Source: Candidatus Moraniibacteriota bacterium (GTDB lineage Bacteria; Patescibacteriota; Minisyncoccia; JAHIHE01; JAGLIN01). From it: DNA of 55,025 nucleotides. Shown here piece by piece: positions 1,910 through 53,924 of the stretch; positions within the stretch are counted from its first letter, which is position 1, and every line of letters starts with the position of its first letter. Below the pieces are notes generated by a model. It was not told the DNA's origin. It saw only the letters and a program-made list of their open reading frames with translations, and made no database searches. The stretch lies in assembly GCA_030641185.1 (NCBI GenBank), contig DAOWHY010000035.1:1-55025 (forward strand), in the 5' to 3' direction. The position numbers and the translations under genes were made by a program.

Positions 1910-1940
1910 GGTTCCACAGCTCTGTGGAGACTATGGAACC
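1910..1940. repeat. family D hairpin repeat (GGTTCCACAGCTCTGYGGAGACTATGGAACC)
   Basis: Near-identical copies at 15948-15978, 20255-20285 (inside a CDS) and, inverted, at 42707-42736. Confidence 0.8.
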
Positions 1941-2105
1941 AGCGATGTCAAAAAAATTGGCGTTTATTTTTATTTATTGGTATAATAAAGCCATAACAAA
2001 AAATCAAAAGATTTTGGAGGTTTTGTTTCTATTTTTTAATTATGCGTTTGCGTTTGTAGATGAAAGATAATATTTAATAGTATAAATTAAACCTAAAACA
2101 ACAAA

Positions 2106-2132
2106 GATTCTGAAACAAGTTCAGAATGACAG
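2106..2132. repeat. family B terminal hairpin (GATTCTGAAACAAGTTCAGAATGACAG), solo end with about 90 bp of adjacent family B internal sequence
   Basis: It matches the right ends of the full copies at 32969-33169 and 53722-53924. The sequence upstream (2040-2105) resembles the interior of the 33-kb copy. Confidence 0.75.
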
Positions 2133-2155
2133 ATTTTTAATGTTTTAAAAAATAC

Positions 2156-2731
2156 ATGCCGGAAGTTTTGGAAAAACTTTTTCGTTCTAAAGCTGAAATT
2201 AAATTTTTGCGGTTGTTTTTGAATAATCCGGATAAGGAATATCTTTTAAGCGAGGCGGCTCAAAAATCAAAAATAAATTCAGCGACAACTCGAAAAGAAG
2301 TTAATAATTTAGCGAAAATTAAATTTTTGCTTTCCAGAAAAAAAGCCGGAAAAATATATTATCGCGCGAATCACGAGTTTATTTTTTATGACGAATTGAA
2401 AAAAATAATTTTTAAAACAAGTCCCACTTCGTCAGATAAAATCAAATCACAAGTATTGAAATTAGGACAGGTCAGATTTCTATTAATTTCCGGCGTGTTT
2501 ATAAATTCCGACAAGAGTAAAGTTGATATTATGATCGTCGGCGAGCATCTCAATAAAAGCAAGTTAAAAAGCTTCCTGTCTGTGATTGAAGCGGAAGCCG
2601 GCAAAGGGATAAACTATGTTTGTATGAGCACAGATGAATTTAGATATAGGAAAGGAATGTTTGATAAATTTGTGATCAATATTTTAGAAGGGCCTCATAA
2701 AATTTTAATAGATAGGATGAAAAATATTTAA
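2156..2731 (+). CDS. hypothetical protein, possible winged-helix regulator fused to a nucleotidyltransferase-like C-terminal half
   Basis: 191-aa ORF with typical local codon usage. The N-terminal pattern FLRLFLNNPDKEYLLSEAAQKSKINSATTRKEVNNLAK resembles a wHTH. Function is not established. Confidence 0.5.
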   Translation: MPEVLEKLFRSKAEIKFLRLFLNNPDKEYLLSEAAQKSKINSATTRKEVNNLAKIKFLLSRKKAGKIYYRANHEFIFYDELKKIIFKTSPTSSDKIKSQVLKLGQVRFLLISGVFINSDKSKVDIMIVGEHLNKSKLKSFLSVIEAEAGKGINYVCMSTDEFRYRKGMFDKFVINILEGPHKILIDRMKNI

Positions 2732-2736
2732 ATATT

Positions 2737-2813
2737 TAAATTGTTAAATTGTTATGTATGGCACAGCAATGAATTAATGAGTTATAATAATAATTTAACA
2801 ATGTAACAATGTA
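2737..2813. repeat. family G inverted repeat (AAATTGTTAAATTGTTA ... TAACAATGTAACAATG)
   Basis: Related copies at 7470-7562, 40166-48 and 41325-58. The arms are themselves made of 8-9 nt tandem units. Confidence 0.75.
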
Positions 2814-2824
2814 ATTTTAAATTC

Positions 2825-4585
2825 ATGGAGAATAAAAAACAAAAAACAATTTATCTAAATGCGGATGATGAAATTAATTTTATAATTGATAAGATTAAAA
2901 AATGTGAAGCAAAAGAAATTACGCTGATTATTCCTGAAAGCGCTATGGTTCTTCAAAATCTAATAAATCTCAAGGTGCTTAGGATGAACGCGAAAGAACT
3001 TGAAAAAGATATTTCAATAGTTACTATTGACGATGATGATTATTTTGAGACAGGAAATAAAATTGGAAATCGATCAAGTTCTATAAAGAATTTAATAGAT
3101 GAATCAGATGAAGAATTAAATAAGAAAAAAGAAAATGAAAGTGATGTTCCAAGTGTTTCTTTTGTTAAAAATCTGGAAAATAAAAAATCTGAAAGTAAAA
3201 CTGAAATGCGTGATATAATAAAAAAGAAAGAAATCAATACTGATGGCGCTGATAGCGCAGTCAAAGAAATAAGGGAAAAAAAAGAAGAGAGCTTGCTTCA
3301 ACAAAAAGAATTTAGTCAAAATGGAATTGAAAACGCAGAAAATAATAAAAACATAAATATTAGCAAAGTGAATGACTTTGAAAAATCAAAAAAACAGAGT
3401 AGGAGAAAAATAAATTTACTTCCGTCGCTAAGCTCAAGGTTTTTTGCCGGGTTTATCATTGTTTGCTTTACTACTGTTCTGGTAATTTTAGGGTTTGTGC
3501 TTCCTAAGTCAGATATAGTTATTACCTTGAAAACAGAAGCGTTAACATACGATTTTGAATTTGTGGCCGATGAATTAATAAATAAAATTGACTCAGTAAG
3601 CGATAAAATTCCGTCGGAAAAAATAGATATTATAAATGAAGAAAGTGGTAATTATCCAGCCACGGGAAAAAAGCATATTACAGAAAAAGCGGTAGGGAAG
3701 ATTACAATTTATAACGAGTGCTCCACTGGTTCGCAAACTTTAGTCGTTAATACTAGATTTCTCTCTAAGGAAGGAAAAATATTTAGAATAAAAAAAGCAG
3801 TTAAGATAGCTGGTTTTACTAAGCCTGAAGATAAAATTATTCCAGGAAGTGTTACGGTGGATGTTGTAGCTGAAGGGTCTGGCGAAAATTATAATATAAA
3901 TAGTACATCTTTTACTATACCTAGACTCCAAGAATTAAATAGTTGGAAATTCTCCTGTCTTTATGCTAGATCAGAACAAGCAATGTCTGGCGGAGTTGAT
4001 AGGGAAGTCTTATATTTTTCAGACAGCGATTATCTTACAGCCAAAGAAAAACTTGTAAAAATTGCAAAGGAAAAAAACGAGAAAGAATCTTCGGAGAAAT
4101 CTTCAGACAAATATGTGCTGTTAGAAAATTTGGAACAGAACGAAGAAGTTAAAATTGAAGATGATGTTAAAGTTGGCGATATTGTTGATAGTTTTCAAAT
4201 GACCGTTTCAGTAAAAACTACAGCTCTTTTTGCGACTAAAGACGATCTTGACGATTTAATAGATGAAAAAATCAGTTCAGATTTGAGTGATGATATAGAA
4301 CTCGTTGAGGGAAGCAGAAAATGGGAAGTTGGAGAAATAAATAAAGATGAAAATGGAAAAATGTCTATACCCGTTTCTGTTATCCAGAATTCAATTGCCA
4401 AAATTGACATTGATAAAATAAAAAACGAAATAGCTGGAAAAAACGAATTGGAATTACGAAAGTATTTTATTAACATAAAAGGAATTAAAGCAACGGATGT
4501 GGGTTTCTGGCCGTTTTGGGTAAAAAGTATTCCATCATCTTTGGATAAAATAAATATAACTATTGACATAAATAGTTCTATGTAG
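2825..4585 (+). CDS. hypothetical bitopic membrane protein with large extracytoplasmic C-terminal region
   Basis: 586-aa ORF. It has a K/E-rich N-terminal cytoplasmic part, one TM helix (FFAGFIIVCFTTVLVILGFVL) and then a beta-rich region. No motif recognised. Confidence 0.6.
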   Translation: MENKKQKTIYLNADDEINFIIDKIKKCEAKEITLIIPESAMVLQNLINLKVLRMNAKELEKDISIVTIDDDDYFETGNKIGNRSSSIKNLIDESDEELNKKKENESDVPSVSFVKNLENKKSESKTEMRDIIKKKEINTDGADSAVKEIREKKEESLLQQKEFSQNGIENAENNKNINISKVNDFEKSKKQSRRKINLLPSLSSRFFAGFIIVCFTTVLVILGFVLPKSDIVITLKTEALTYDFEFVADELINKIDSVSDKIPSEKIDIINEESGNYPATGKKHITEKAVGKITIYNECSTGSQTLVVNTRFLSKEGKIFRIKKAVKIAGFTKPEDKIIPGSVTVDVVAEGSGENYNINSTSFTIPRLQELNSWKFSCLYARSEQAMSGGVDREVLYFSDSDYLTAKEKLVKIAKEKNEKESSEKSSDKYVLLENLEQNEEVKIEDDVKVGDIVDSFQMTVSVKTTALFATKDDLDDLIDEKISSDLSDDIELVEGSRKWEVGEINKDENGKMSIPVSVIQNSIAKIDIDKIKNEIAGKNELELRKYFINIKGIKATDVGFWPFWVKSIPSSLDKINITIDINSSM

Positions 4586-4610
4586 TAGACTGCAAAAGTA
4601 GTTGATTCGT

Positions 4611-4680
4611 GTCATAGTGAGCTTGTCGAACTATGATAGGTTGGATGAGTCTGTTATCCTTCGACAAGCTTAGGATGACG
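4611..4680. repeat. family B' double-hairpin element (GTCATAGTGAGCTTGTCGAACTATGA ... ATCCTTCGACAAGCTTAGGATGAC)
   Basis: The same element occurs in the opposite orientation at 29139-29208. Confidence 0.85.
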
Positions 4681-4755
4681 AATAAAAGTAAATATTATTT
4701 TAAAGTATCAAGCTCAACTAGTGATACTAGTTGTTGTTTTGTTTACGAATAAAAA

Positions 4756-4858
4756 ATAGAAACTAATGGAAACTTGTAGAAACTGGTTGAAATTAATTGT
4801 CTTTAGAAAACAACAATTTAATTTCCATTAATTTCTATGAGTTTCTATAAATTTCTAT
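4756..4858. mobile_element. family H MITE-like element, intact copy of about 103 bp
   Basis: Terminal inverted repeats ATAGAAACTAATGGAAACTTGTAGAAA / TTTCTATGAGTTTCTATAAATTTCTAT. Other copies at 5146-5316 and 9011-9120. Confidence 0.8.
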
Positions 4859-4933
4859 TTATAGTAATAGTAATAGTTGTTTTGAAAATAAATAAAATTG
4901 TGAAAACATCAAAGTTTATTAATTTTGTAATTT

Positions 4934-5143
4934 ATGAAAGAAATAATACAAGTAGAAGGAAGCGTAACTGAAGTTTTGCCTGGAACAAAATTTAAAGTGC
5001 AAATTGATGATGGACATGAATTGCTGGCTCATATTTCCGGTAGAATGAGAATGAATTATATAAAGATATTACCGGGAGATAAAGTGGTTGTTGAGATGAG
5101 TCCTTATGATTTGACAAAAGGAAGGATTGTGAAGAGAGGGTAG
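4934..5143 (+). CDS. infA: translation initiation factor IF-1
   Basis: 69 aa with an S1-like fold signature: [60 protein letters not shown]. Confidence 0.95.
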
Positions 5144-5145
5144 CA

Positions 5146-5316
5146 ATAGAAATTTATAGTAATTAAATTGTTGTTTTCTAATTATAATTTATTTTTTGCC
5201 TTAAATCCTGGATTCCTGCCTCCGCAGGAATGACAAAAACTGCGTTTTTCGGAGGTTCCTAAAGACAATTAATTACAATTAGTTGCTACAAATTTCTATA
5301 AGTTTCCATTTACTAT
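5146..5316. mobile_element. family H element (reverse orientation) interrupted by a nested insertion
   Basis: It aligns to the reverse complement of 4756-4858, except for the 78-bp insert at 5182-5259 and a short internal deletion. Confidence 0.8.
5182..5259. mobile_element. short family C-type element nested inside the family H copy, flanked by a TAA duplication
   Basis: The uninterrupted H copy reads TTCTAAAGACAATT. Here it reads TTCTAA[78 bp]TAAAGACAATT. The insert carries GTCATTCCTGCGGAGGCAGGAATCCAGG (reverse strand), which matches the family C ends at 6005 and 51317. Confidence 0.8.
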
Positions 5317-5386
5317 TTGAGTTGATATGATTGATGGAGATAAAAATTTTTGAGAAAATTTGTTAATGTTTAACAAACAAAATAAT

Positions 5387-5500
5387 ATGAAAGTAAGAGC
5401 TTCGGTTAAAAAATTTTGTGATAAATGTAAAATAGTTCGGCGTAAAAAAAGAGTTTATGTTGTTTGTTCTAATCCAAAACATAAACAGAGACAAGGATAA
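5387..5500 (+). CDS. rpmJ: 50S ribosomal protein L36
   Basis: Absent from the ORF track because it is under 60 aa. Manual translation gives [37 protein letters not shown], the canonical L36 Zn-ribbon, in the expected infA-rpmJ-rpsM position. Confidence 0.93.
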
Positions 5501-5502
5501 AT

Positions 5503-5590
5503 AAGTATTAAGCATCAAGTAGTAAGTAGTAAGCAAGATAAATATTTATGTTTAGTGCTTAATACTAACTACTTAATACTAATTACTAAC
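5503..5590. repeat. family I palindromic repeat (AGTATTAAGC...AGTAGTAAG / GCTTAATACT...)
   Basis: It fills the whole rpmJ-rpsM spacer. Related copies at 14670-14737 and 15241-15273. Confidence 0.7.
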
Positions 5591-5592
5591 AA

Positions 5593-5982
5593 ATGCCAAG
5601 AATTTTAGGAGTTAATATTCCAGAAGAAAAAAGAATAGAAGTTGCTTTAACTTACATAAGTGGTGTGGGCGTTTTTTCTAGTAGAAAGATTTTAAAATCG
5701 GCTAATATTAATCTTGACAAAAGAGCAAAAGAGATCACTCTTGAGGAAGTAAGTAAAATCCAAAAGATTATTGAAAAAGAATATAAAACGGAAGGGGAGC
5801 TCAGGCGGATTATTATGATGAATATTAAGAGATTGAAAGAAATAGGATGTTATAGAGGAACAAGGCACTCTAAGGGATTGCCGACAAGAGGACAAAGAAC
5901 TAAAACAAATAATAGAACGGTAAGAGGAAATGTCAGAAGAACGGCTGGGAGCGGAAGAAGTAATGCTAGTGAGAAAACATAG
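5593..5982 (+). CDS. rpsM: 30S ribosomal protein S13
   Basis: MPRILGVNIPEEKRIEVALTYI.G.G ... YRGTRHSKGLPTRGQRTKTNNRT, a typical S13. Confidence 0.96.
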   Translation: MPRILGVNIPEEKRIEVALTYISGVGVFSSRKILKSANINLDKRAKEITLEEVSKIQKIIEKEYKTEGELRRIIMMNIKRLKEIGCYRGTRHSKGLPTRGQRTKTNNRTVRGNVRRTAGSGRSNASEKT

Positions 5983-6004
5983 AATGTTATATTACTAAAT
6001 TATT

Positions 6005-6138
6005 CGTCATTCCCGCGGAGGCGGGAATCCAGTTAATCTCAATGAATAATATTTATTGTATGATTTTGTTAAGTGAGACTAACTGGATCCCAGACATTTT
6101 TTCTTACGCTTCGCTTCAGAAAAAATTCTGGGATGACA
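6005..6138. mobile_element. family C MITE-like element, about 134 bp
   Basis: CGTCATTCCCGCGGAGGCGGGAATCCAG ... GTGAGACTAACTGGATCCCAGAC ... TCTGGGATGACA. A second full copy at 51317-51477 has long identical blocks. Confidence 0.88.
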
Positions 6139-6164
6139 AATAAATTTTTATAATAATAAATAAA

Positions 6165-6605
6165 ATGGGAAAAAGAAGAGTAATAAAAATTGGGAGTAAG
6201 GATGGGGATGGATCTAAAAATGCTTCTGGAAAGGCGTTGAAAAAGACCAAAAGAAAAAATGTTGCGAAAGGGAAGATTCATATCAAATCAACTTATAATA
6301 ATACAATTGTTACGCTAACGGATTTGAGCGGAGGTTTGATTGCTTGGTCCAGTGCTGGTCTTTTAGGTTTTAAAGGAGCTAAAAAAGCAACGCCATACGC
6401 AGCTACTAATATTGTCAATTCTTTGTTTGAAAGAGTGAAAAAAATAGGACTTAAAGAAGTTGATGTTTATGTAAAAGGAATTGGCAGTGGCAGAGAGTCT
6501 GCCGTCAGGGCGATTGCTTCTAATGGAATTAATATTGTTTCCATAACCGATACGACACCAATTCCGCATAATGGCTGCCGACCTCCGGGACCGAGGAGAA
6601 TGTAG
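6165..6605 (+). CDS. rpsK: 30S ribosomal protein S11 with lysine-rich N-terminal extension
   Basis: GKIHIKSTYNNTIVTLTD..G..IAWSSAG..GFKGAKKATPYAA ... TDTTPIPHNGCRPPGPRR. Confidence 0.96.
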   Translation: MGKRRVIKIGSKDGDGSKNASGKALKKTKRKNVAKGKIHIKSTYNNTIVTLTDLSGGLIAWSSAGLLGFKGAKKATPYAATNIVNSLFERVKKIGLKEVDVYVKGIGSGRESAVRAIASNGINIVSITDTTPIPHNGCRPPGPRRM

Positions 6606-6840
6606 GGAGTAAAATTTTGTAATTTTTAATTTTGTAATTTTTAAATAAATCTTAATTTTCAATTTCTAAATTTATTTTTTAAAGAAATGAATGATAGGTA
6701 AATTTAAAAATTTGGTCATTAAACATTATTTTAAAAATTAAAAAGTATAAAATTAAAAATTTAAACAATGTTGATACTGGAAATTCTGTAACAAATAATA
6801 AGACAAGCAAAGTATCACTATAATATATAATAAACTGTCT

Positions 6841-7467
6841 ATGGCTAGAGATTTAAGTCCAAAATGTAAAAAGTGTAGAAGAGAGGGAAAGAAGCTTTTC
6901 TTAAAAGGCGAGCGTTGTTATGGCGTAAAATGCGCGATGATTAAGAGACCATACGCGCCAGGAGAGCATGGGCAAGCAAGAAGAATGGGTCTTTCGGAAT
7001 ACGGAATTCAGTTAAGAGAAAAGCAGAAAGTCAAAAGAACATATGGGATTTTAGAAAAGCAATTTAGAAAATATTATGAAATGGCCAGTAAAGCAAAAGG
7101 TAATACAGGAAGCCTGTTGTCTGGTTTATTGGAGAGAAGATTAGACAATGCCGTCTACCGTCTTGGATTAGCGGATTCAAGGAATAAAGCGAGACAATTA
7201 GTTAATCATGGACATTTTTTGCTGAATGGAAAAAAAGTGGATATACCCTCTTGTCTTGTAAAAGAGGGCGATCTAATCTCAATCAAAAATGAAAACGGAG
7301 CTTGTTTTCAAGATTTAAAAAAGACATTAAAGAACTACAAAACCCCGTCTTGGCTATCTTTGGAATATCAGAAACTTCAGGGTAAAGTTATCTCTTTGCC
7401 AGTTGCCAAAGAAATTGATATTGATATTGATATTCATTTAGTCATTGAACATTATTCTAAAGCATAA
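6841..7467 (+). CDS. rpsD: 30S ribosomal protein S4
   Basis: N-terminal Zn-finger CKKCRREGKKLFLKGERC, then YGIQLREKQKVKRTYG and an S4 RNA-binding domain (RLDNAVYRLGLADSRNKARQLVNHGHFLLNGKKVDIPS). Confidence 0.96.
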   Translation: MARDLSPKCKKCRREGKKLFLKGERCYGVKCAMIKRPYAPGEHGQARRMGLSEYGIQLREKQKVKRTYGILEKQFRKYYEMASKAKGNTGSLLSGLLERRLDNAVYRLGLADSRNKARQLVNHGHFLLNGKKVDIPSCLVKEGDLISIKNENGACFQDLKKTLKNYKTPSWLSLEYQKLQGKVISLPVAKEIDIDIDIHLVIEHYSKA

Positions 7468-7469
7468 AG

Positions 7470-7562
7470 TTATATTGCTAAATTGTCATATTGTTAAATT
7501 ATTACGCATAGCGTAATAGTATGGCAAGGGACAATTTAACAATTTAACAATTTAACAATTTA
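7470..7562. repeat. family G inverted repeat
   Basis: TTATATTGCTAAATTGTCATATTGTTAAATT ... (CAATTTAA)n. It fills the rpsD-rpoA spacer. Confidence 0.75.
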
Positions 7563-7573
7563 ATTTAAAAAAT

Positions 7574-8578
7574 ATGCAAAAAATAACATTGCCAGAAAAA
7601 CCAAAAATAATAAAGCAGGAAGGCAACTTTGCAATTTTTGAAATCAAATCATGTTATCCTGGATACGGAATGACCATAGGAAACGCTTTAAGAAGGGTTC
7701 TTCTTTCTAGTTTAAGCGGATCAGCTATAACTGCCATTAATATTAGCGGAGTAAATCATGAATTTTCCACCATTCCCGGAATAGCGGAAGATGTTGTAGA
7801 AATAGTGCTTAATCTTAAAAAAGTAAGATTTAAAATGCATACAGATGAACCTGTAAAATTGACTCTAAGGACTAGTAAAGAAGGAGAAGTAAAGGCGTCG
7901 GAGATTATAGCTACAAGTGATGTTGAGGTGGTCAATAAAGATGCTCATATTGCAACCGTAAACGATAAAAACAGCAAGTTGGAAATGGAAATCAGAGTGG
8001 AAAGGGGAATAGGATATGTGCCGATTGAGCAGCAAAACAAGGAAAAACTTGAAACAGGAAACATATCTATAGATTCTATCTTTACTCCTGTAAAAAAAGT
8101 TAATTTTAAGGTTGAAAATATGCGTGTTGGTAAATTGACCAATTATGATAAACTTATTCTTGAAATAGAAACTAGCGGAGAAATAACACCAGAAGAAGCA
8201 TTTAAAAAAGCAACTAAACTGTTAGTTGATCATTTCAATTTATTCAGAGAAGTAATAGAAGAAAAAGTTGAAGATAAAGAAAAAGAGGATAAAGAAAAAA
8301 AGGAAGTTATAAAAAAAGAAAAGTCAGTTAAGGAAAAAAAGATAGAAAATGAAGAAAATGAAAAAGAAAAACAGGAAGATGTTTTAAAAACGCAAGTTGA
8401 AAGCCTCAATCTTTCTCCTAGAATTTTGAATATTTTAAACGATGGTAAAATAAAAAGTGTCAGTAAGCTTGTTAAAAAATCAGAAGAAGATTTAAAGGTA
8501 TTGCCTGGAATGGGAGATAAAGGAATAAAAGAAATTAAGAAAGCATTGGGAAAATTAGGATTGACTCTGAAAATATAA
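7574..8578 (+). CDS. rpoA: DNA-directed RNA polymerase alpha subunit, with a long K/E-rich NTD-CTD linker
   Basis: NTD motifs GYGMTIGNALRRVLLSSL and IPGIAEDVVEIVLNLK. CTD motif LNLSPRILNILNDGKIKSVSKLV. It lies in the conserved rpsD-rpoA-rplQ order. Confidence 0.95.
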   Translation: MQKITLPEKPKIIKQEGNFAIFEIKSCYPGYGMTIGNALRRVLLSSLSGSAITAINISGVNHEFSTIPGIAEDVVEIVLNLKKVRFKMHTDEPVKLTLRTSKEGEVKASEIIATSDVEVVNKDAHIATVNDKNSKLEMEIRVERGIGYVPIEQQNKEKLETGNISIDSIFTPVKKVNFKVENMRVGKLTNYDKLILEIETSGEITPEEAFKKATKLLVDHFNLFREVIEEKVEDKEKEDKEKKEVIKKEKSVKEKKIENEENEKEKQEDVLKTQVESLNLSPRILNILNDGKIKSVSKLVKKSEEDLKVLPGMGDKGIKEIKKALGKLGLTLKI

Positions 8579-8608
8579 TAGAATGATAGAAATTTAATAA
8601 GGACAACT

Positions 8609-8956
8609 ATGAAGCATAAAATAAAAGGAAGACAATTTAAGAGAAGCAAATCACAAAGAAAAGCTTTGTTGAAACATTTGACAGAAGCGCTTGTTTTACA
8701 TGAAAAAATTACGACAACAACAGCTAAAGCAAAAGAGCTTTCGGTTTATGCGGAGAAGTTAATTACGACGGCGAAGAAACAAAATCTTTCTTCGGCGAAA
8801 GCGATTCACGATATCTTAGCGGATAAACCAGCGAAGAAAATGATCAATGATATTTCTAAAAAATATAAAAGCAGAAACGGCGGATACACGAGAGTTATAA
8901 AAATCGGGGAAAGAAAAGGAGATGTCGCGGAGATGGCGATTATAGAATTGGTGTAA
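8609..8956 (+). CDS. rplQ: 50S ribosomal protein L17
   Basis: MKHKIKGRQFKRSKSQRKALLKHLTEAL..HEKITTT.AKAKEL ... GGYTRVIKIGERKGD. Confidence 0.95.
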   Translation: MKHKIKGRQFKRSKSQRKALLKHLTEALVLHEKITTTTAKAKELSVYAEKLITTAKKQNLSSAKAIHDILADKPAKKMINDISKKYKSRNGGYTRVIKIGERKGDVAEMAIIELV

Positions 8957-9010
8957 TAATTGGAGTTCATTTTTTAGAGTGTAGGAAGAGTGTAGAAAGT
9001 TTAATTTAAA

Positions 9011-9120
9011 TAGAATTAGAAATTAATTGAAATTCGTAGAAATTTATAGAAATTAAGTCGTTGCTTTCTAAAAACAATTAGTTTCAACAAGTTTCTGTGA
9101 GTTTCCATAAATTTCTATAG
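9011..9120. mobile_element. family H MITE-like element
   Basis: It ends with GTTTCTGTGAGTTTCCATAAATTTCTAT, as in the copies at 4756 and 5146. It lies in the rplQ-rplM spacer. Confidence 0.75.
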
Positions 9121-9131
9121 CTAATATAATT

Positions 9132-9557
9132 ATGTCAGTAAATAAAGATAATAATAGAACAAACAAAATAAAAAAGCCAGAAAGGGATTGGCATCTTTTT
9201 GATGCGCGAGAGGAAAGTTTTGGGAGGATGGCTTCAAAAATCGCTGTTTTGTTGAGGGGGAAAAATAAAGTGGATTTTGCTCCGCATATAGACGGCGGGG
9301 ATTATGTTGTGGTAACAAATTCCGATAATTTGAAATATACGGGAAATAAAGGCGAGGGGAAAATTTATTACAGATACAGTGGTTATATGGGCGGACTAAA
9401 AGAAATAAATTTAAAAGATAAAATTAAAAAAGATTCCAGAGAGGTGATTAAAATAGCAGTTTACGGAATGTTGCCAAAGAATAAATTAAGAGACGAAATG
9501 ATTAAAAGACTGAAAGTTTACAAAGACGAAGATTATTTAGAGAAAGATAAATTTTAG
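9132..9557 (+). CDS. rplM: 50S ribosomal protein L13
   Basis: WHLFDAREESFGRMASKIAVLLRGKNK..F.PH.D.GDYVVVTN ... GMLPKNKLRDEMIKRLKVY. Confidence 0.95.
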   Translation: MSVNKDNNRTNKIKKPERDWHLFDAREESFGRMASKIAVLLRGKNKVDFAPHIDGGDYVVVTNSDNLKYTGNKGEGKIYYRYSGYMGGLKEINLKDKIKKDSREVIKIAVYGMLPKNKLRDEMIKRLKVYKDEDYLEKDKF

Positions 9558-9577
9558 ATATAAATTGTTAAATTGAT

Positions 9578-9762
9578 TTCTACCCGGCTTTAGCCGAGGG
9601 TCGGCGAGGTTTTAACCTCGCGGGAAAAATATATAAACAAATATAAAATCGTTTGAGATTAATTTTTCAAAATTAGATTTCATAATGCATAAAATATAAA
9701 TTTATTGAATTAAATCTCGTGAGGTTAAAACCTCATTGACCGTGCGCTAAAGCGCCGTAGAA
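9578..9762. mobile_element. 185-bp MITE-like element with terminal inverted repeats of about 47 bp
   Basis: The left arm TTCTACCCGGCTTTAGCCGAGGGTCGGCGAGGTTTTAACCTCGCGGG pairs with the reverse complement of the right arm, TTCTACGGCGCTTTAGCGCACGGTCAATGAGGTTTTAACCTCACGAG. It lies between rplM and rpsI. Confidence 0.85.
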
Positions 9763-9782
9763 AAAATCTAAATTATGTAACT

Positions 9783-10208
9783 ATGAGTGAAGATAATAAA
9801 GAAAAAACTAAGGGAAAGTATTTTTATGCGACAGGCAGAAGAAAATCCTCTGTTGCCAAGGTTAGAGTTTATGATGAAGCAAAAGAAAAAGGCATTACAA
9901 TAAACGACAAGGATTATAAAGAATATTTTATGAAAAATAATATTCTTATTGAAAAAATAAACTCTCCATTAAAGCTTTTAAATTTTGAAGGTAAGTTTTT
10001 AATATCTGTTAAGGTCCTCGGCGGCGGAGCGAATGGTCAGGCAGAAGCTGTGAGATTGGGAATTGCCAGAGCGCTTCTTTCTATGAATGGGGATTTTAAA
10101 AAAGAATTAAGAGCCAATGATTATTTAACAAGAGATCCGAGGAAGGTTGAAAGAAAGAAGCCTGGGCTGAAGAAAGCAAGAAGAGCTCCGCAGTGGAAGA
10201 AGAGATAG
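9783..10208 (+). CDS. rpsI: 30S ribosomal protein S9
   Basis: YATGRRKSSVAKVRV ... GGGANGQAEAVRLGIARAL ... LTRDPRKVERKKPGLKKARRAPQWKKR. Confidence 0.96.
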   Translation: MSEDNKEKTKGKYFYATGRRKSSVAKVRVYDEAKEKGITINDKDYKEYFMKNNILIEKINSPLKLLNFEGKFLISVKVLGGGANGQAEAVRLGIARALLSMNGDFKKELRANDYLTRDPRKVERKKPGLKKARRAPQWKKR

Positions 10209-10230
10209 AATTAAAATTATTAGAAATTTA

Positions 10231-10260
10231 AAAAACCGCTTGTTGATGAGCGGTTTTTTT
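10231..10260 (+). terminator. rho-independent terminator after rpsI
   Basis: AAAAACCGCT-TGTTGATG-AGCGGTTTTTTT. Confidence 0.8.
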
Positions 10261-10319
10261 GTTTTGTTTTTCTTAAAATATTTATTCACAGTTTTTCACT
10301 TTATAAAGCGTATTTTTTG

Positions 10320-10328
10320 TGCTATAAT
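10320..10328 (+). promoter_or_regulatory. extended -10 promoter element (TGcTATAAT) upstream of the amidase island
   Basis: Perfect TATAAT at 10323-10328 with TG one nt upstream. It is followed by a leader of about 200 nt containing inverted repeats AGAGACAGTG (10403-12) / CACTGTCTCT (10446-55). Confidence 0.5.
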
Positions 10329-10523
10329 ATTGAGATATTAAGAGGAGAAGATAAAAAGTTCTTTCAAAAAACAAAACAAAAAATATGTCTCTTGAGTTTT
10401 TCAGAGACAGTGTTGAGTTTTCTGATTTTAGTTTAGAAAATTCTGCACTGTCTCTAATAAGGAAGTGAAATAAAAAAATAATGTTTTATTTCCAATGAAT
10501 TAAGGGGCGGACGGAGATATAAA

Positions 10524-11150
10524 ATGAAAACCAAAAGAATAGGAACAATAGTGGTAGCAATGCTATTACTAACATTGCTTTGCGCAATGGTAACACCAGT
10601 AGCTGCGTATAGCTACAATGGGGAAGCAGCAGCGAATTATGCGTATAACAACGCATATAACAATGTGCCAGGAACATATGTTTTTAAGAACGGTGGCGGT
10701 GATTGCACTAACTTTGCATCGCACTCTCTTCAAGCTGGAGGGTGGAGAGAAATCGGAGGTTGGTCGTATATCAGCAGTGATGTTTGGTTTTATGATTATC
10801 CCTATAGGTATGGTTATAGTCACACTTGGACTGTTGCTGATAGATTCTATGATTTTCTCGCAGCACATAATAATAGAGCATATCCAGTTTCGGTGAAATA
10901 TAGAAAGCATCTGTTACAAAAAGGCGATATTGTCCAGATAGACTACAAAGACAAATACGGGAATTGTGGATACTGGGATCATACAATGATTGTTACCGAT
11001 AAAAATGGTAATGATCCATTGATGTCATATCATTCAGTAGGAGAACCAAGCCAAACTGGAGTGAGAAACAAATCTCTTACGGAGATAATGAATGATAATT
11101 CAGATGCTCGTTTCCTTGGCTGGCGAATTCGCAGTACCTATTACTATTGA
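10524..11150 (+). CDS. secreted protein with putative amidase (Amidase_6 / CHAP-NlpC-like cysteine amidase) domain
   Basis: Signal peptide MKTKRIGTIVVAMLLLTLLCAMVTPVAA. Motifs GGGDCTNFASHSLQAGGW (candidate catalytic Cys), SHTWTVADRFYDFL and GDIVQIDY...WDHTMIVT (candidate His). These match my recollection of the 'putative amidase domain' family. Confidence 0.7.
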   Translation: MKTKRIGTIVVAMLLLTLLCAMVTPVAAYSYNGEAAANYAYNNAYNNVPGTYVFKNGGGDCTNFASHSLQAGGWREIGGWSYISSDVWFYDYPYRYGYSHTWTVADRFYDFLAAHNNRAYPVSVKYRKHLLQKGDIVQIDYKDKYGNCGYWDHTMIVTDKNGNDPLMSYHSVGEPSQTGVRNKSLTEIMNDNSDARFLGWRIRSTYYY

Positions 11151-11253
11151 AATTGCTAAGCAGTAATTTTAGTAGTATAATTGGGGGTAGATAATAATAA
11201 AAACAAAGAACTTTATTATTGTCTACTCTATTTTTTTAAAATTATTTATTGTA

Positions 11254-11856
11254 GTGAACAATTTAACAATTATCAAAAAAGTAATAATAGGAATGTTGTT
11301 AGTAGTAGTTTTTTTGGTGGTAGCAAAAGTAATTCTAAATGAGCGTCGTTTAAAACAAAGCGAGCAGCGGTTTTCTGAATGCTTTAATCAAATTCCAGAA
11401 AATCCAGATCCTGAAGATGTCATGGGTTTGAGTTTGGCAAGTTTGTCTGCTAATGAAGAAAAAGAGATACAAGAAATTATTAGAAAAGCATTTGAAGGAC
11501 AATGGTTATATCGTTATTGTTATAAGGATGAAGATGAAATGGATGATCTGATAGAAAATTTGTATATTTCAAAGGAGTATCAGCAATTTAAAAGAGAAAT
11601 TAAAGAAGAATATAAATATATCAGTCGCGAAAATAGTTTGGAAAATATTTCTTATTCTCTTGAGAAAATGAGATTTAGCAAACCAAGAAAGTATAAAGAT
11701 CTTGATGACAGAATTGGAATAATAGCTGGGAACGGTAATATCCATTATTTCCTATTCAAAAAAATTAATGACCAATGGAAAATAGAAAAAGAAATATGGC
11801 ATATAAAACCTTGTTTTCTTGATGAGACATTCTCTATTGTTGGTTCAGGTCTCTGA
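11254..11856 (+). CDS. hypothetical N-terminally anchored protein, candidate partner or immunity protein of the amidase
   Basis: 200-aa ORF with a GTG start and a TM helix VIIGMLLVVVFLVVAKVIL. The last five codons and the TGA stop lie inside a repeat (11838-11996). Function unknown. Confidence 0.5.
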   Translation: MNNLTIIKKVIIGMLLVVVFLVVAKVILNERRLKQSEQRFSECFNQIPENPDPEDVMGLSLASLSANEEKEIQEIIRKAFEGQWLYRYCYKDEDEMDDLIENLYISKEYQQFKREIKEEYKYISRENSLENISYSLEKMRFSKPRKYKDLDDRIGIIAGNGNIHYFLFKKINDQWKIEKEIWHIKPCFLDETFSIVGSGL

Positions 11857-11996
11857 CCTGAACCAGATATTTCTTAGGAAATAATTAAAAAACTTATATC
11901 TTTAATGATCTTATAATTTGTGAATTTAAGAATGATGTTTGGTTATAGATAGGTTAAAGAAATAAAAGGTTCAGGTCGGGAGACCTGAACCAACAG
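11838..11996. mobile_element. family F element (TGTTGGTTCAGGTC...GACCTGAACCAACA), two hairpins flanking about 100 bp
   Basis: A second copy lies at 23343-23464, and a solo end (TTGAACCAAC) at 1871-1880. Confidence 0.85.
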
Positions 11997-12120
11997 TAAA
12001 GGAACTGTTTATAAAACAGTTCCCACAATAAGTGTCAATCCCTAATATGCGACAAAATAAAATTTATCGTATTTTCAGGGCAGACACATAGGTCTGCCCC
12101 TACGATGATAATAAAATAAT

Positions 12121-42791: not shown

Positions 42792-44456
42792 ATGAAAAAA
42801 GAATCTTTATCAGTTATGACAGTCAAAACGCTTTTGGCTGTGGTTATTTTTACGGGGATTGGAACGATTATTATCGGCGGGGGATATATTATTGGGGAGT
42901 ATTCTAAAACGCAAAATAATAATAAAACTATTAAGATTATTGAGACTGTTGAAGAAAATCAAAAAGAGGAATTAATAATATCTTGCAAAACAGATTCGGA
43001 TTGCGAAGGTTATTTTTCGTATAATACTTGTGAAGTTTTTTGTGCTAATAAAGATGAAAAAAATCAAAAAATACTTGAGGGATTTAAGAAAAGGTGTGAT
43101 CTAACAGCATGGTTTGCGCTTCAACCTAAATGTGGATGTATTGATAATAAGTGTCAGCAAGTAGTTGGAGAAAGGTCTTATGATCTTTTAGAAAAAAAAT
43201 GTGACGGCAATAGCTGTTGCCTAGATGCTCTTGAATATATGAAAGAGAATAATTATAAGGAAACCAAACGAAGTTTTCAGCCAGAAGAAAAGCATAACTG
43301 CCCGAGTGGGTTTAAAGTAGGGAGTCTTGATTGCTATACTTTTTTGAAGTGGTGCGAGCCGGTTGAAGAAAAATATTGTTTTGACGGCCAAAATAATCGT
43401 AGAGAAATTGGAGAAATTTGGTCAGAAAGTCCGACTATATTTACAGAATGCAATGAATTCGAGAGTGTTTCAGTCAATCATGTGTTGTCTTGCGGTAAAG
43501 AAAAATTAATTATCTCGGCTGGCTATAGTTCTAATGAAAACAATATAAACAGAACTAACCCATCACTTCCTTTTTTCATCGGAACCGACCTCTCGTTAAA
43601 ATATACATGGGTTATAGACGGAAATAAATACACAAGCTCTTCTGGCGGACCGACTGGGGTTTTTGCCTCGTGCGAAAATGAAAAAGCGGCAATATTTTCT
43701 TTTGGTGGGATGGGTGAAACATATTATAAAAAAACATTTTTTGAAAATGATTATAAAACAGTAATATCTTGTCTTGATTCGTTAGCTTATTATGAAGAAG
43801 GCGGAAGAGTTTACGATGAAAATGATCCTAAAAATTTTACAATCGGCAGATTTAAAAATGGCGAAAGAGCGGGAGAGTTTAAACTGCTTGAAAATGGAAA
43901 AGAAATATGTCAGGAAATTAAAGAAAGGTATCAAGAGATAGAAGAAACTACCATTGGCACATTAAACTGGCAGATTTATCAGGATAAAAAGTTTGGATTT
44001 GAGATGAAGTGTCCGGAATATTATAATAGGTTGTTATATGATTTTAAGACTATGAAAGAAGAAGATTATAACAGTATTCATTTTTTTAGAGATATGAGCG
44101 AAGAAGAATTGAATGATTTCAAAGAAAATTATTTAATTGTCTTTGAAGAGGGTGGTACTCATTCGGGAACAGTTTTGGTGAAATCATATAATAATGAGGA
44201 AAAATTAAAAAAATGGTATGAAATTGAATCATTTGAAGATCTTGAATTTAAAGAATTCGATAATGTAGATTATTATATAGCGAACAAACTAACAAAGAAC
44301 ACTTCATCTAAAAACGAACAGTTGATAGCAGGTTATAACTATATTATCCCGCACCGTGAAATTGACAATTTATTTTTGGTCTTTGAGATACCTGAGTTTT
44401 TAAAATCAAAATTTGAAAAGGATTTTCTTCCCACTTTTAAATTCACACAAAAATAA
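42792..44456 (+). CDS. hypothetical secreted/anchored Cys-rich protein, paralog 2 of a cassette pair
   Basis: N-terminus MKKESLSVMTVKTLLAVVIFTGIGTIIIGGG. It has a Cys-rich central region, the motif WQIYQDKKFGFEMKCP, and ends PTFKFTQK. Confidence 0.6.
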   Translation: MKKESLSVMTVKTLLAVVIFTGIGTIIIGGGYIIGEYSKTQNNNKTIKIIETVEENQKEELIISCKTDSDCEGYFSYNTCEVFCANKDEKNQKILEGFKKRCDLTAWFALQPKCGCIDNKCQQVVGERSYDLLEKKCDGNSCCLDALEYMKENNYKETKRSFQPEEKHNCPSGFKVGSLDCYTFLKWCEPVEEKYCFDGQNNRREIGEIWSESPTIFTECNEFESVSVNHVLSCGKEKLIISAGYSSNENNINRTNPSLPFFIGTDLSLKYTWVIDGNKYTSSSGGPTGVFASCENEKAAIFSFGGMGETYYKKTFFENDYKTVISCLDSLAYYEEGGRVYDENDPKNFTIGRFKNGERAGEFKLLENGKEICQEIKERYQEIEETTIGTLNWQIYQDKKFGFEMKCPEYYNRLLYDFKTMKEEDYNSIHFFRDMSEEELNDFKENYLIVFEEGGTHSGTVLVKSYNNEEKLKKWYEIESFEDLEFKEFDNVDYYIANKLTKNTSSKNEQLIAGYNYIIPHREIDNLFLVFEIPEFLKSKFEKDFLPTFKFTQK

Positions 44457-44498
44457 AAAACACAAAAATAAATATTCATAATCCAAATATTATGTTAG
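44455..44498 (+). repeat. second copy of the 44-nt direct repeat
   Basis: See 42661-42704. Confidence 0.9.
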
Positions 44499-46072: not shown

Positions 46073-46212
46073 TGTCATTGCGAGGAGCCTGAGTGGACGC
46101 AGTGAACGAGAAGGCGACGAAGCAATCCCGCAACTAAGCTCTCTGTGCGTAGTTACGGGATTGCTTCGTCATTCCACTACGCTATCGCTCCGTTCCATTC
46201 CTCGCAATGATA
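46073..46212. mobile_element. family A element, 140 bp
   Basis: TGTCATTGCGAGGAGCCTGAGTGGACGC...GACGAAGCAATCCCGCAAC ... GTTACGGGATTGCTTCGTC...CCTCGCAATGATA. Its right end supplies an upstream in-frame ATG for the tgt ORF. Confidence 0.88.
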
Positions 46213-47411: not shown

Positions 47412-48119
47412 AAAAAACAAAAAAACAGGCTTTGTTGCCAGTTTGAATATAATAAAAAAGGGTAAGTTTTCTACCTTAATAATTTTCTATCAAGGTCTCA
47501 GGTATAAATCCTGAGTTGTCTTTTTTCCTAAGACTAAAGAAAACCTACCCATTTGTTAAAATCTCCTCATTGATTTTTCCTCCTTTTCAAAAAATGCCGA
47601 TCAACCTCGCTGTACTCTGTTTTGATCTTCCCCTTCGTTTGCTTGGGGGTATGGCGAGGGTTGGTTTTGGAACACAAGCGGCGTCGCTTTTATTCCTTGT
47701 CGTCAGCAATCTTCTTGAGCTTCTCCCATAACTGGGAATTTTCCTATTTTTTATTTTAAGTCTTAAAATTGATGCTGATTTTTCCGCCGATGGGCGGTTG
47801 TTCTGGTCCCTGCAGGTCCGATCCTATTGAAGCTCAATCGTAAACTGGCGGCCGAACAGCTGGGTATCAGTGGTTGGTATAATGGTTCTTACAAAAAATT
47901 TGTCTTTCATCTTTTTTCCATACTATCTACTCCTTTGGTCCTCTGCTTAACGCAGTTGTTATACATCTTGTGCATAACAAACGGACTCTTTATTTATAAA
48001 GTTTCTTTCTTAATCAACTTCAAATCAAGAAATCAACTTTATAAACCACCGTAGCACATCAAAAAGATTTGTCAAGACCTGAAGAAAGTATTAGAATGAA
48101 ACTACATTGCTCTATTATA

Positions 48120-48300
48120 TTTGGAGTATCAAACAAGCCGCAGCGAAGTTTGACTGAATAACAATAAATTACAATCTTACGATTTTTCGGTAGAACTCCG
48201 CTCCGCTTTATTCTTAAAAAGACTTAATATAAAAACAAGCAGTTTGAAGATGTGTTTTATAAATTTTAGAAAAAAGGCGGAGCTATGTTCTACACTCCAG
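48120..48300. mobile_element. family K element, about 181 bp
   Basis: TTTGGAGTATCAAACAAGCCGCAGCGAAGTTTGAC ... TCTACACTCCAG. It lies immediately upstream of the Na/Pi transporter gene. Confidence 0.7.
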
Positions 48301-51316: not shown

Positions 51317-51477
51317 CGTCATTCCCGCACTGAAATAAAATTCAGCATAAACTCCGGCGGGAATCCAGTAAAGCTCAATAAATAATATTTCTCGTATAAT
51401 TTTAATAAAGTGAGACTAACTGGATCCCAGACATTTTTTTCTAAAGCTATCGCTTTATAAAAAATTCTGGGATGACA
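51317..51477. mobile_element. family C MITE-like element, about 161 bp
   Basis: CGTCATTCCCGC...GGCGGGAATCCAG ... GTGAGACTAACTGGATCCCAGACATTTTTTT ... TCTGGGATGACA. Collinear with 6005-6138. Confidence 0.88.
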
Positions 51478-52848: not shown

Positions 52849-52853
52849 ACATT

Positions 52854-52932
52854 AAAATATTAAAACACGAGAACATGTTGAGATTTCAAAATTTTGTTTT
52901 AATGTTTTGATGTTCTCGTGTTTTAATATTTT
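52854..52932 (+). terminator. perfect 23-bp stem hairpin with a 33-nt loop, followed by a T-run
   Basis: AAAATATTAAAACACGAGAACAT (52854-76) is the exact reverse complement of ATGTTCTCGTGTTTTAATATTTT (52910-32). Confidence 0.6.
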
Positions 52933-52937
52933 TGGGG

Positions 52938-52965
52938 TTGACATATGATTTCAATATGATACTAT
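52938..52965 (+). promoter_or_regulatory. sigma-70-like promoter upstream of greA
   Basis: TTGACA (52938-43), a 16-nt spacer, then TGaTACTAT (extended -10, 52957-65). Confidence 0.55.
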
Positions 52966-53069
52966 GGTACAAGTGATTTTTACCCAACTTATTTAGTGGG
53001 TTTTTAATTTTATAAATCGCTAATTTTAAGGTTTAGAAACATTATAAAATAATCAGATAAAACAAAAAA

Positions 53070-53531
53070 ATGGCAAAAAAATTCATTACAATAGATGGTT
53101 TAAAGAAATTAAAAGAAGAACTTAATTATTTAAAAACATCAAAAAGACAAGAGATATCAAAACGAATTCAGAGCGCGAAAGAATTAGGAGATCTGAGTGA
53201 AAATGCGGAATATTCCGAGGCAAAAGAACAGCAAGCTCTTAATGAATCAAAAATTGAAGAGTTGGAAGAAACTTTTAAAAATATTGAAACAATTGATGAT
53301 CGTCATTCAAAGTCCAATGTTGTGAATATTGGATCTACGATAAAAATGAAGAATGGAGAAATTGAACGCACTCTTACTATAGTCGGTTCAAATGAAGCCG
53401 ATCCGTCGGAAGGTAGAATTTCCAACGAATCACCTCTTGCAATGTCTTTTTTGGGGCATAAAGTTAATGATAAAGTTGAAGTTAAAACTCCAAAAGGAAA
53501 AACAAGCTATCTTATCTTAGAAATTTCATAA
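53070..53531 (+). CDS. greA: transcription elongation factor GreA
   Basis: IT..G...LKEEL.YLK...R.EI...I..A...GDLSENAEY..AKE.Q, with a C-terminal FKBP-like domain (ISNESPLAMSFLGHKVNDKVEV). Confidence 0.93.
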   Translation: MAKKFITIDGLKKLKEELNYLKTSKRQEISKRIQSAKELGDLSENAEYSEAKEQQALNESKIEELEETFKNIETIDDRHSKSNVVNIGSTIKMKNGEIERTLTIVGSNEADPSEGRISNESPLAMSFLGHKVNDKVEVKTPKGKTSYLILEIS

Positions 53532-53553
53532 ACGATTTAAATCTAGTTATTAT

Positions 53554-53586
53554 AAAAGACGATGATTTTGAATCTCGTCTTTTTTG
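53554..53586 (+). terminator. terminator after greA
   Basis: AAAAGACGA-loop-TCGTCTTTTTTT. Confidence 0.7.
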
Positions 53587-53721
53587 TATCCCGCTTAATT
53601 ACGATAAATTATTAAAAGCGCTTTTTGTTTTTAATAGTTTAGTGATATAATGAATTTAGATTAGTGGAAAGATGTATTGCAGAGGAAATTTTGGGTTACT
53701 GAAATATGATTGTGTAGAATT

Positions 53722-53924
53722 TGTCATCCTGAACTTGTTTCAGGATATTTCAGCCATTATATTGATTTAGCCCACAAGTCACAAAGCATTTAACTAAACC
53801 GAAAACACAATTGTCGTATCAAACGGGAAGACACTTGAATTTTCATTGTAAACGAAAGGCAATACTGAATAGTACAAATTAAAACTTAAAATGTAAAAGA
53901 TCCTGAAACAAGTTCAGGATGACA
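53722..53924. mobile_element. family B full-length MITE-like element, 203 bp
   Basis: TGTCATCCTGAACTTGTTTCAGGAT ... ATCCTGAAACAAGTTCAGGATGACA. It ends 17 nt before the dnaG start codon. Confidence 0.88.

Follow-up and report, generated by a model that had tools for sequence, protein, structure and literature searches.

Do short palindromic repeats that share their outermost bases also share an enzyme? The question is raised by contig DAOWHY010000035.1 of a Candidatus Moraniibacteriota bacterium (assembly GCA_030641185.1), analysed here over its whole 55,025 nucleotides (hereafter the window), in which an earlier note had described at least a dozen families of such repeats and had read the GTCAT beginning common to several of them as pointing to a common mobilising enzyme. 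The window is of a Patescibacteria/Parcubacteria genome type, from an ultra-small cold-seep bacterium, and its spacers are colonised by many hairpin-repeat families. The earlier observation is real and its core intuition, that a shared end means a shared enzyme, is right; its interpretation as a whole was half right. The GTCAT families, denoted A, B, B' and C, are quite probably CGTC/TGTC-tagged repeats of the Ssn-type GIY-YIG nucleases, which would supply a candidate enzyme for the window copies. The question of the shared end is one that the literature had already answered, in the form of CGTC-tagged repeats with an Ssn single-stranded DNA (ssDNA) nuclease as their partner. The kind of repeat is already described, and what is unusual here is its density, its turnover and its insertions within genes.

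Self-BLAST of the window together with a repeat finder recovered about 12 multi-copy palindromic families (A, B, B', C, D, E, F, G, H, I, J and the TTAGCTTTTTAG repeat) as well as single palindromes (K at 9577-9763 and others at 36457, 49934, 52854, 20688 and 32318), in agreement with the dozen or more first described. Half, solo and internally deleted copies, likewise described before, lie at 21755-21821, 2046-2131, 5207-5235 and 41322-41367. When spacers of at least 60 nt were counted against a curated gene list, with a repeat or self-palindrome of at least 20 nt scored as positive, 28 of the 37 spacers were positive, and repeats covered 38% of spacer bases versus 1.2% of coding bases. The statement that almost every spacer longer than 60 bp is made of repeats was thus a mild overstatement, since nine spacers were repeat-free at this threshold, several of them being ordinary terminators or containing small open reading frames (ORFs). 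Hairpin strength was assessed by folding 12 elements, with z-scores taken against dinucleotide shuffles. Ten of these gave z between -6 and -12, the two weak folds, at z -2.6 and z -2.9, being those of the G copy at 2728-2814 and of K's left part; the A palindrome at 38501-38605 folds to -73 kcal/mol.

Architecture of the GTCAT families

The A, B, B' and C sequences quoted in the earlier note were all found at their expected places. The copies in the window are the following, with the strand given where one was assigned:

16915-17038: family A, nested palindrome (TGTCATTGCGAGG..CGAAGCAATCCCG and its inverted counterpart), in frame in the GT4 glycosyltransferase gene 16325-17575
21755-21821, plus strand: family A, left half only, 96.7% identical to 16914-16973
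38501-38605: family A, full palindrome (self-BLAST, folding)
46073-46210: family A, full element whose right terminus CCTCGCAATGA (46205-46210) overlaps the annotated ATG of tgt (46207)
32969-33167: family B, element of about 200 bp with left end TGTCATCCTGAACTTGTTTCAGGATCT and a degenerate right end
53722-53924: family B, element with both ends intact (self-BLAST, inverted repeats)
2046-2131, minus strand: family B, right half (self-BLAST)
4608-4679: family B', 72-nt element (GTCATAGT-GAGC-TTGT-CGAA-ACTAT and its inverted counterpart; self-BLAST, folding)
29140-29210: family B', second copy (self-BLAST)
6005-6138: family C, element with left end CGTCATTCCCGCGGAGGCGGGAATCCAG (the Neisseria NTS consensus with one mismatch), central hairpin and right end GTCATCCCAGA..TCTGGGATCCAG
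51317-51477: family C, second copy, 84.8% over 145 nt, with a longer loop in the left hairpin
5207-5235, minus strand: family C, solo hairpin (TGTCATTCCTGCGGAGGCAGGAATCCAG; motif match)

The left motif of family A, TGTCATTGCGAGG, begins at 16915, 38501 and 46073, with the variant TGTCATTGTGAGG at 21755. The family B motif TGTCATCCTGAAC begins at 32969 and 53722 and, on the minus strand, at 53924; those of family B' are GTCATAGTGAGC at 4612 and GTCATCCTGAGC at 29141. In family C, CGTCATTCCCGC stands at 6005 and 51317 and TGTCATCCCAGA at 6138 and 51477, the latter two on the minus strand.

The ends of all four families carry an unpaired (C/T)GTC tag followed by a stem that runs AT...AT, and in A, B and C a C follows the stem. 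Among 11 perfect stems of at least 7 bp after GTC, 10 begin AT and nine of the 11 have a C behind them, nine of the 11 being B or C copies. The elements of the window are gene-less pairs of inverted hairpins with their tags facing outward, and their hairpins fall into two structural classes. Perfect stems of 8 bp are found in B, with a 5-nt loop and the tail CT, and at the left end of C, with a 4-nt loop and the tail CCAG, and the bulged class, in A and B', has a 5-bp stem followed by a GAG(G/C)...CGAA internal loop, to which A adds a long inserted loop. The placement of B' beside A in the bulged class is by resemblance, namely the shared GAG(C)...CGAA internal loop, and is accordingly provisional.

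This architecture is close to that of the CGTC/TGTC-tagged repetitive extragenic palindromes (REPs), which have AT-start stems, 4-5-nt loops and CCA tails, form head-to-head dimers and include intragenic copies (Di Nocera 2013, PMC3733652). That group, which comprises dRS3 and the Rickettsia palindromic elements (RPEs) RPE-4/6, was described as repeats that 'lack a dedicated transposase'; its families are mostly from Alphaproteobacteria, and candidate-phyla bacteria are not listed (PMC3733652). The window families share with it the CGTC/TGTC tag, AT-start stems of 8-9 bp with 4-5-nt loops (B and the C left end), a CCA-type tail (C), head-to-head dimers, in-frame intragenic copies and sites just after stop codons, but differ in the 5-bp stem and GAG..CGAA internal loop of A and B' and in the long inserted loop of A.

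The likeness extends to an enzyme. SsnA, a GIY-YIG protein of about 94 amino acids (aa), binds the NTS motif, folded on one strand, only as ssDNA, and its cut falls a few bases upstream; cleavage is governed by the three bases that precede the palindrome, the key binding base is the C that follows, and ssn genes are typically flanked by motifs of this type, termed NTS or Ssn-related motifs (SRM) (Chenal 2025, PMC11893778). The window repeats resemble this system in the GTC tag, the AT-start palindrome and the trailing C, and family C is nearly NTS itself, its left end departing from the consensus of the Neisseria NTS, CGTCATTCCCGCGMAVGCGGGAATCYRG, in a single loop base and agreeing with it at the other 27 of the 28 positions. 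By sequence comparison, family C is thus shown to be nearly identical to a proven Ssn substrate.

A nuclease gene framed by the family A and B ends

If the shared end belongs to an Ssn-type system, the same ends would be expected beside a gene for such a nuclease in other genomes. The half motif of family A, TGTCATTGCGAGG-N10-40-CGAAGCAATCCCG (26 fixed bases), was scanned against a species-representative genome collection and was found in more than 114 tiles (at least that many, among the matches listed) from Proteobacteria, Chloroflexota, Acidobacteriota, Gemmatimonadota, Omnitrophota, Melainabacteria, Ignavibacteria, Planctomycetes and many Patescibacteria. The families therefore extend beyond the window and are not local duplications, the same ends occurring in other genomes and in metagenomes. 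A GIY...YIG regular expression applied to ORFs within 600 nt of the A motifs gave no match and was superseded by unbiased clustering of all 2890 small ORFs in the 114 listed tiles, followed by hidden Markov model (HMM) searches. Clustering yielded one recurring real protein family, a GIY-YIG protein of about 96 aa; a cluster of equal size, also from four tiles, was read-through of the repeat itself. In a Melainabacteria tile (L086) and one other (L095), the GIY-YIG gene lies exactly between inverted A halves, in the arrangement TGTCATTGCGAG..GAAGCAATC-[gene]-GGGATTGCTTCG..CTCGCAATGACA, and in a Burkholderiales tile (L042) it lies between two direct A halves, so that two of the 114 tiles listed have the gene framed by inverted halves and one by direct halves. 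The framing ends are the same as those of the gene-less A palindromes of the window. Tags-outward A pairs numbered 32 in these tiles, of which 30 were gene-less, with centres of 10-82 nt, and two held the gene, with centres of 315 and 316 nt.

For family B it was predicted beforehand that such a gene would lie between inverted B ends separated by 310-340 nt, and metagenomes were scanned accordingly. The scan returned 53 loci, and 25 of 57 intervals contained a GIY-YIG ORF (HMM E-values 1e-22 to 1e-38), the remaining intervals being arrays of short hairpins. The gene-bearing B units measure 348-364 bp, share a 27-nt end identical to the B end of the window (the terminal inverted repeat of the copy at 32969-33167 matches them at 100% over 27 nt) and are, in all 25 cases, lower in GC than the contig that hosts them. 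In other genomes, then, the gene-bearing form with the same ends is a unit of 350-400 bp composed of a hairpin, an ssn gene of about 95 aa and an inverted hairpin. In many units of the B1 type (L116-L168) the ssn ORF continues into the hairpin on the right (...EDPETSSG), where the TGA of ..GGATGACA ends it.

The framed proteins belong to PF01541, are about 95 aa long and have more than 8000 scored relatives, mostly on short contigs; the nearest solved structure is PDB 1ZG2, a UPF0213 GIY-YIG protein, and no specific family for them was found in NCBIfam. Their C-terminal motif shifts with the class of the framing hairpin, being KNWHRxWK with the perfect stems of B1, KGWxRxKK with the bulged stems of B2 and KGGSRxKK with the bulged stems of A, and the three A proteins form one clade (support 0.92). 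Such a shift is what a separate cognate enzyme for every hairpin family would lead one to expect and, in this small sample, suggests that hairpin class and nuclease C-terminal motif are putatively co-evolving specificities. The likeness to the Ssn system is increased by the hairpin-ssn-hairpin units of other genomes, whose ends are identical to those of A and B, and by the partner being a single-domain GIY-YIG protein of about 95 aa. Because both the A and the B ends frame a GIY-YIG gene, the shared end points to one enzyme family, the Ssn-type GIY-YIG nucleases, and not to RAYT/IS200.

The latter type of enzyme, a REP-associated tyrosine transposase (RAYT) or TnpA of the IS200/IS605 type, was the candidate named in the earlier note, and as the agent that spread repeats of the REP or bacterial interspersed mosaic element (BIME) type here it is improbable. 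Its appeal lies in the layout of the window repeats, which are hairpins and inverted dimers placed just after stop codons, and the REP/BIME-RAYT systems further resemble them in having a nuclease partner, domesticated or selfish, that works on ssDNA hairpins without target duplication. They differ in the tag, in the fold of the enzyme (GIY-YIG versus HUH/Y1) and in the published activity (nuclease only). The GTCAT families are tagged CGTC/TGTC, not GTAG (PMC3733652), and the sole recurring gene near the A ends in the 114 tiles listed and inside the 25 B-end pairs is GIY-YIG, not Y1, so that RAYT/IS200-IS605 TnpA does not fit these families; Pfam scans of the window also detected no Y1 transposase. 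An origin through RAYT may well hold for some of the families without GTCAT.

The earlier description of several families as MITE-like, in the sense of classical MITEs (miniature inverted-repeat transposable elements), would make them deletion derivatives of DDE-transposase insertion sequences, mobilised in trans through cut-and-paste transposition. The repeats would fit such elements in having terminal inverted repeats, interiors that vary, lengths of 70-200 bp and solo ends. However, neither nine window copies nor 22 gene-bearing units have target-site duplications, the parent-like unit with identical ends carries a GIY-YIG gene of 95 aa rather than a DDE transposase, and the B interior has no homology to that GIY-YIG gene, so that the classical sense did not hold and a DDE-driven origin is very improbable indeed. 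The absence of ssn homology in its interior also means that B is not a simple internal-deletion derivative of the gene-bearing unit, a derivation that was considered and rejected. As the earlier note had stated, no transposase was found in the window, either in Pfam scans of 50 window ORFs or in the Pfam assignments already computed for the ORFs that lie from 20806 to 28225.

Several points weigh against the assignment of the GTCAT families to Ssn. The published SRM pattern, HGTCWYN(0-2)YYVSBRHN(0-5)WNVSBRGN(0-2)RNCYNB, has no match on either strand of the window (shuffles average 0.01), with C failing by one loop base, G where H is required, and A, B and B' by AT-richer or bulged stems that do not fit YYVSBR. 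As a membership filter the pattern was dropped for AT-rich and bulged variants. The key SRM bases, GTC directly 5' of the palindrome and C directly 3', are present in A, B and C, but in B' the trailing C is absent and G or A follows the palindrome. A search of all six frames with a GIY-YIG HMM found no such gene in the window. The Ssn-type assignment of the framed proteins draws only on PF01541, their size, their framing and the 1ZG2 match, and not on the cd10448 model. Summed word depths in metagenomes, which over the A, B and C cores are about 30- to 1000-fold above neighbouring sequence and for family G about 1000, include other organisms and are not copy numbers. Ssn has been demonstrated solely as a site-specific ssDNA nuclease (PMC11893778), no transposition activity has been published for it, and neither a target-site duplication nor a target consensus was found at the window copies or gene-bearing units counted above. 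It is for this last reason that mobilisation by Ssn is something we infer: of the claim that the shared GTCAT end implies a common mobilising enzyme, the common enzyme family stands, whereas its role as a mobiliser has the status just given.

The setting also departs from the described Ssn systems. The host, a Patescibacterium, has a genome that is very rich in AT, at least four families of hairpins occur together, A, B and B' lie outside the published SRM pattern, there is no ssn gene in the window, and copies occupy most of the longer spacers and the inside of genes, compared with only 2% of NTS copies being intragenic in N. meningitidis (PMC11893778). A possible scheme that would accommodate these features is that Ssn enzymes encoded elsewhere in the genome act on the window copies, and that their action on ssDNA in replication, repair or DNA uptake drives the spread or the maintenance of those copies. 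The hairpin-ssn-hairpin unit would then be selfish, and the gene-less pairs may spread or persist via Ssn activity. In Neisseria, Ssn activity lowers the integration of motif-carrying transforming DNA (PMC11893778). More speculatively, with motifs at most gene boundaries, incoming homologous ssDNA might be cut to roughly gene-sized pieces.

A wider reading, put forward tentatively and less likely to hold than to fail, is that the 350-400-bp hairpin-ssn-hairpin unit is a very small autonomous selfish element that moves via ssDNA, in several specificity classes whose hairpin and nuclease C-terminal motif co-evolve. A tiny and probably competence-dependent Patescibacteria genome would then hold the debris of at least four such lineages, which shape its operon spacers and add loops to its enzymes. 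A further possibility within the same tentative reading is that the cross-phylum 'GAG...CGAA' bulged class (A, B' and B2) represents a major class of Ssn substrates that the published motif missed.

Turnover in spacers and copies within genes

Turnover was followed in a cold-seep metagenome-assembled genome, CSMAG_1921, and in the Logan contigs of four cold-seep metagenome runs (X1-X4), of which X1 was the best-matching. The relative, represented by positions 64001-80000 of contig DAOWDU010000031.1 (tiles L104 and L101), is syntenic with positions 1-17000 of the window at about 85-89% nucleotide identity and 58-97%, mostly 73-97%, protein identity, and yet has different elements in nearly every orthologous spacer:

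rpsM-rpsK spacer: C in the window; absent in the relative, where the spacer is 33 nt
rplM-rpsI spacer: K in the window; absent in the relative, where the spacer is 30 nt
after ORF 2156-2731: G in the window; absent in the relative
4608-4679: B' in the window; absent in the relative
infA-rpmJ spacer: 241 nt in the window; 49 nt in the relative
4754-4860 and 9011-9118: H in the window; full A elements in their place in the relative
14671-14734: I in the window; a full A element in its place in the relative
2046-2131: B half in the window; in the relative an A half likewise ending ..ATGACAG, 29 versus 30 nt before the next start
rpsK-rpsD spacer: AT-rich palindrome in the window; an AT-rich palindrome of other sequence in the relative

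A full C copy is present at another site in the relative. Within the sampled population, the B' copy at 4608-4679 is cleanly missing from one X1 contig (joint 4607->4680), and in X2 it has 28 other letters in its place. The second B' copy, at 29140-29210, has a B'-free allele in X3 and X4 strains, in which the spacer 29138-29253 is replaced by 35 other nucleotides (joint 29137->29254), and an X3 strain has 21 nt instead of positions 5140-5379. Some contigs of the cold-seep runs have other sequence in place of the interiors of K, F and G, and the Logan contigs of all four runs end at nearly every repeat. Presence/absence polymorphism is thus shown both between close relatives and within the sampled population, and the turnover and insertion polymorphism suggested in the earlier note are borne out by the spacer comparison with CSMAG_1921 and by runs X1, X3 and X4.

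These comparisons also bear on a further explanation, in which the hairpins would chiefly be structures that function in RNA or DNA (as terminators, stabilisers of mRNA, sites of processing or devices for translation coupling) and are selected spacer by spacer, with family identity being incidental. This fits the many elements that fill a spacer exactly from stop codon to next start, the very stable folds, and the presence in the relative of a different strong hairpin at rpsK-rpsD, mreB-GT, rplQ-rplM and upstream of infA, and Di Nocera et al. have argued that most REPs are transcribed (PMC3733652). It is at odds with the short, hairpin-free spacers of the relative at rpsM-rpsK, rplM-rpsI and infA-rpmJ (33, 30 and 49 nt), from which it follows that the hairpin is not required there, and it leaves unexplained how local function would produce identical 27-nt ends across unrelated metagenomes. 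As the main account of the repeats it is rather unlikely, though the least unlikely of the three alternatives weighed here. Scans of the window gave no match to an Rfam family or a tRNA, and none of the RNA runs searched contained this stretch of DNA.

Repeat copies also survive in frame inside genes, as is shown most clearly by the A element at 16915-17038, which is read in frame (VIARS...LLAMT) in the linker between the two Rossmann halves of the GT4 glycosyltransferase and coincides with a gap in the Pfam domain at aa 197-239. This insertion was found in all four cold-seep runs and in the orthologue of the relative, which in addition ends in a C-type tail (CHSRGGGNPV). Across 21 orthologues the linker has 13 residues in six and, in the other 15, contains inserts that fall at one common place and belong to at least five repeat types, including A variants (some internally deleted), C/NTS-type sequences (CHSRP...GGNPV), a PLPRGEG type and others. 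The GT4 inter-domain linker is therefore an insertion hot spot. The short form of the linker, 'PPPPLRKGE', resembles a translated CCCCC..GGGGG hairpin.

In the Elp3 gene, a 107-nt palindrome lies in frame:

32318-32424: in-frame palindrome of 107 nt in the Elp3 gene, encoding a 32-residue insert at aa 183-214

The insert falls in the radical-SAM domain and is absent from solved Elp3 structures (6IA8). An E-like stretch of the same gene, at 31493-31524 (32 nt at 91% identity, 24 nt of them at 100%), codes for YRLKPELQS, and the comparison with 6IA8 gives just a 7-residue length difference nearby, which leaves it at most a putative insertion. Elsewhere, a D hairpin at 20253-20286 lies inside an NlpC/P60 gene (19897-20682), upstream of its catalytic domain (aa 151-257), and the loop of an F hairpin supplies the TGA stop (11854-11856) of ORF 11254-11856. 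The RPEs of Rickettsia are similar in being palindromic repeats tolerated in frame in conserved genes, as here in the GT4 linker and the Elp3 radical-SAM domain, where they form loops of about 30-40 residues; the present case differs in its host phylum and in that a single GT4 linker has received at least five different types of repeat across the 21 orthologues.

What the window adds to the described systems is a clear case from the candidate phyla radiation, in which several hairpin classes occur together in one genome, with direct evidence of rapid gain, loss and replacement, both at about 85-89% DNA identity and within one population. It also adds hairpin types that lie outside the published pattern and yet frame ssn genes, and a protein linker that has repeatedly absorbed such elements. 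In practical terms, the repeats break assemblies, and gene calls for such genomes acquire from them spurious extensions as well as false start and stop codons.

Other palindromic families and neighbouring genes

The remaining families (D, E, F, J and K, and the AT-rich periodic palindromes G, H and I) are likewise real, being multi-copy or polymorphic hairpins, and fall outside the Ssn assignment; no partner gene was found for them, no search for a RAYT partner having been made for D, J and K:

1908-1941: family D hairpin GGTTCCACAGCTCTGTGGAGACTATGGAACC, with further copies at 15945-15978, 20253-20286 and about 42703-42736
15829-15859, plus strand: family E GGAGTTCAGGTTTTAACCTGTAAAA, directly after a stop codon, with further copies at 25435-25465 and 31493-31524
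11838-12001: family F element with ends TGTTGGTTCAGGTCTCTGACCTGAACC, with a second copy at 23341-23465
7469-7566: family G, AT-rich periodic palindrome whose arm is (TAACAATT)n and which takes up the whole rpsD-rpoA spacer between stop and start
2728-2814, 40159-40250 and 41322-41367 (left arm only): family G, further copies
4754-4860: family H, AT-rich palindrome of 10-nt units (TAGAAACTNN), with further copies at 5147-5189 with 5256-5317 and at 9011-9118
14671-14734: family I palindrome (AGTAGTAAG units), filling the mreB-GT spacer, with a related copy at 5500-5584
9577-9763: K, element of 187 nt with two-hairpin ends and an AT-rich interior
41365-41475: family J (GGAGTGTCAAAC..GTTTGACT), with a second copy at about 48115-48300, 85% over 54 nt

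The arms of G, H and I consist of 7-10-nt tandem units, are without the CGTC tag and often span a spacer exactly from stop codon to next start. Some of the D-K families are present in the relative, family D among them, or in another cold-seep Patescibacterium.

The window is AT-rich (32% GC), with nearly all genes on the plus strand. Among the genes recognised with Pfam are recQ, mreB, glycosyltransferases, ABC transporter genes, rmuC, the Elp3-type radical-SAM enzyme, clpB, tgt, greA and dnaG, as well as a ribosomal protein cluster (rpsM-rpsK-rpsD-rpoA-rplQ-rplM-rpsI), upstream of which lie infA and rpmJ, these two being assigned by translation and orthology only. Positions 13032-27575 are identical to a cold-seep metagenome scaffold, and homologues of the window proteins are labelled Parcubacteria, Paceibacteria or Patescibacteria by their sources. 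The gene content of the relative differs at three places: some 2.4 kb of additional coding sequence separates its rpsD from its rpoA, the spacer after recQ contains an extra ORF, and the amidase gene, the 200-aa ORF and the F element of the window (10209-12157) are missing.

Between 47365 and 48322, a stretch of 958 nt has no ORF of 80 aa or more (the longest is 75 aa and matches no Pfam family) and no Rfam match. It is higher in GC than its surroundings, begins at a strong terminator hairpin and contains a family J copy, and could be a decayed gene or an undescribed RNA. A 72-nt direct repeat of 90% identity (42633-42704 and 44427-44498) spans the 3' ends of two adjacent genes, 41517-42662 and 42792-44456, together with the spacers downstream of them; neither gene has a Pfam family, and the repeat suggests a tandem paralogue pair and not a mobile element. 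Many plus-strand genes have no Shine-Dalgarno sequence and have instead the AT-rich right arm of a palindrome directly 5' (for example at 5388, 5593, 6165, 7574, 14740 and 40254), and small minus-strand ORFs, such as one near 16290, have strong GGAGG sites.

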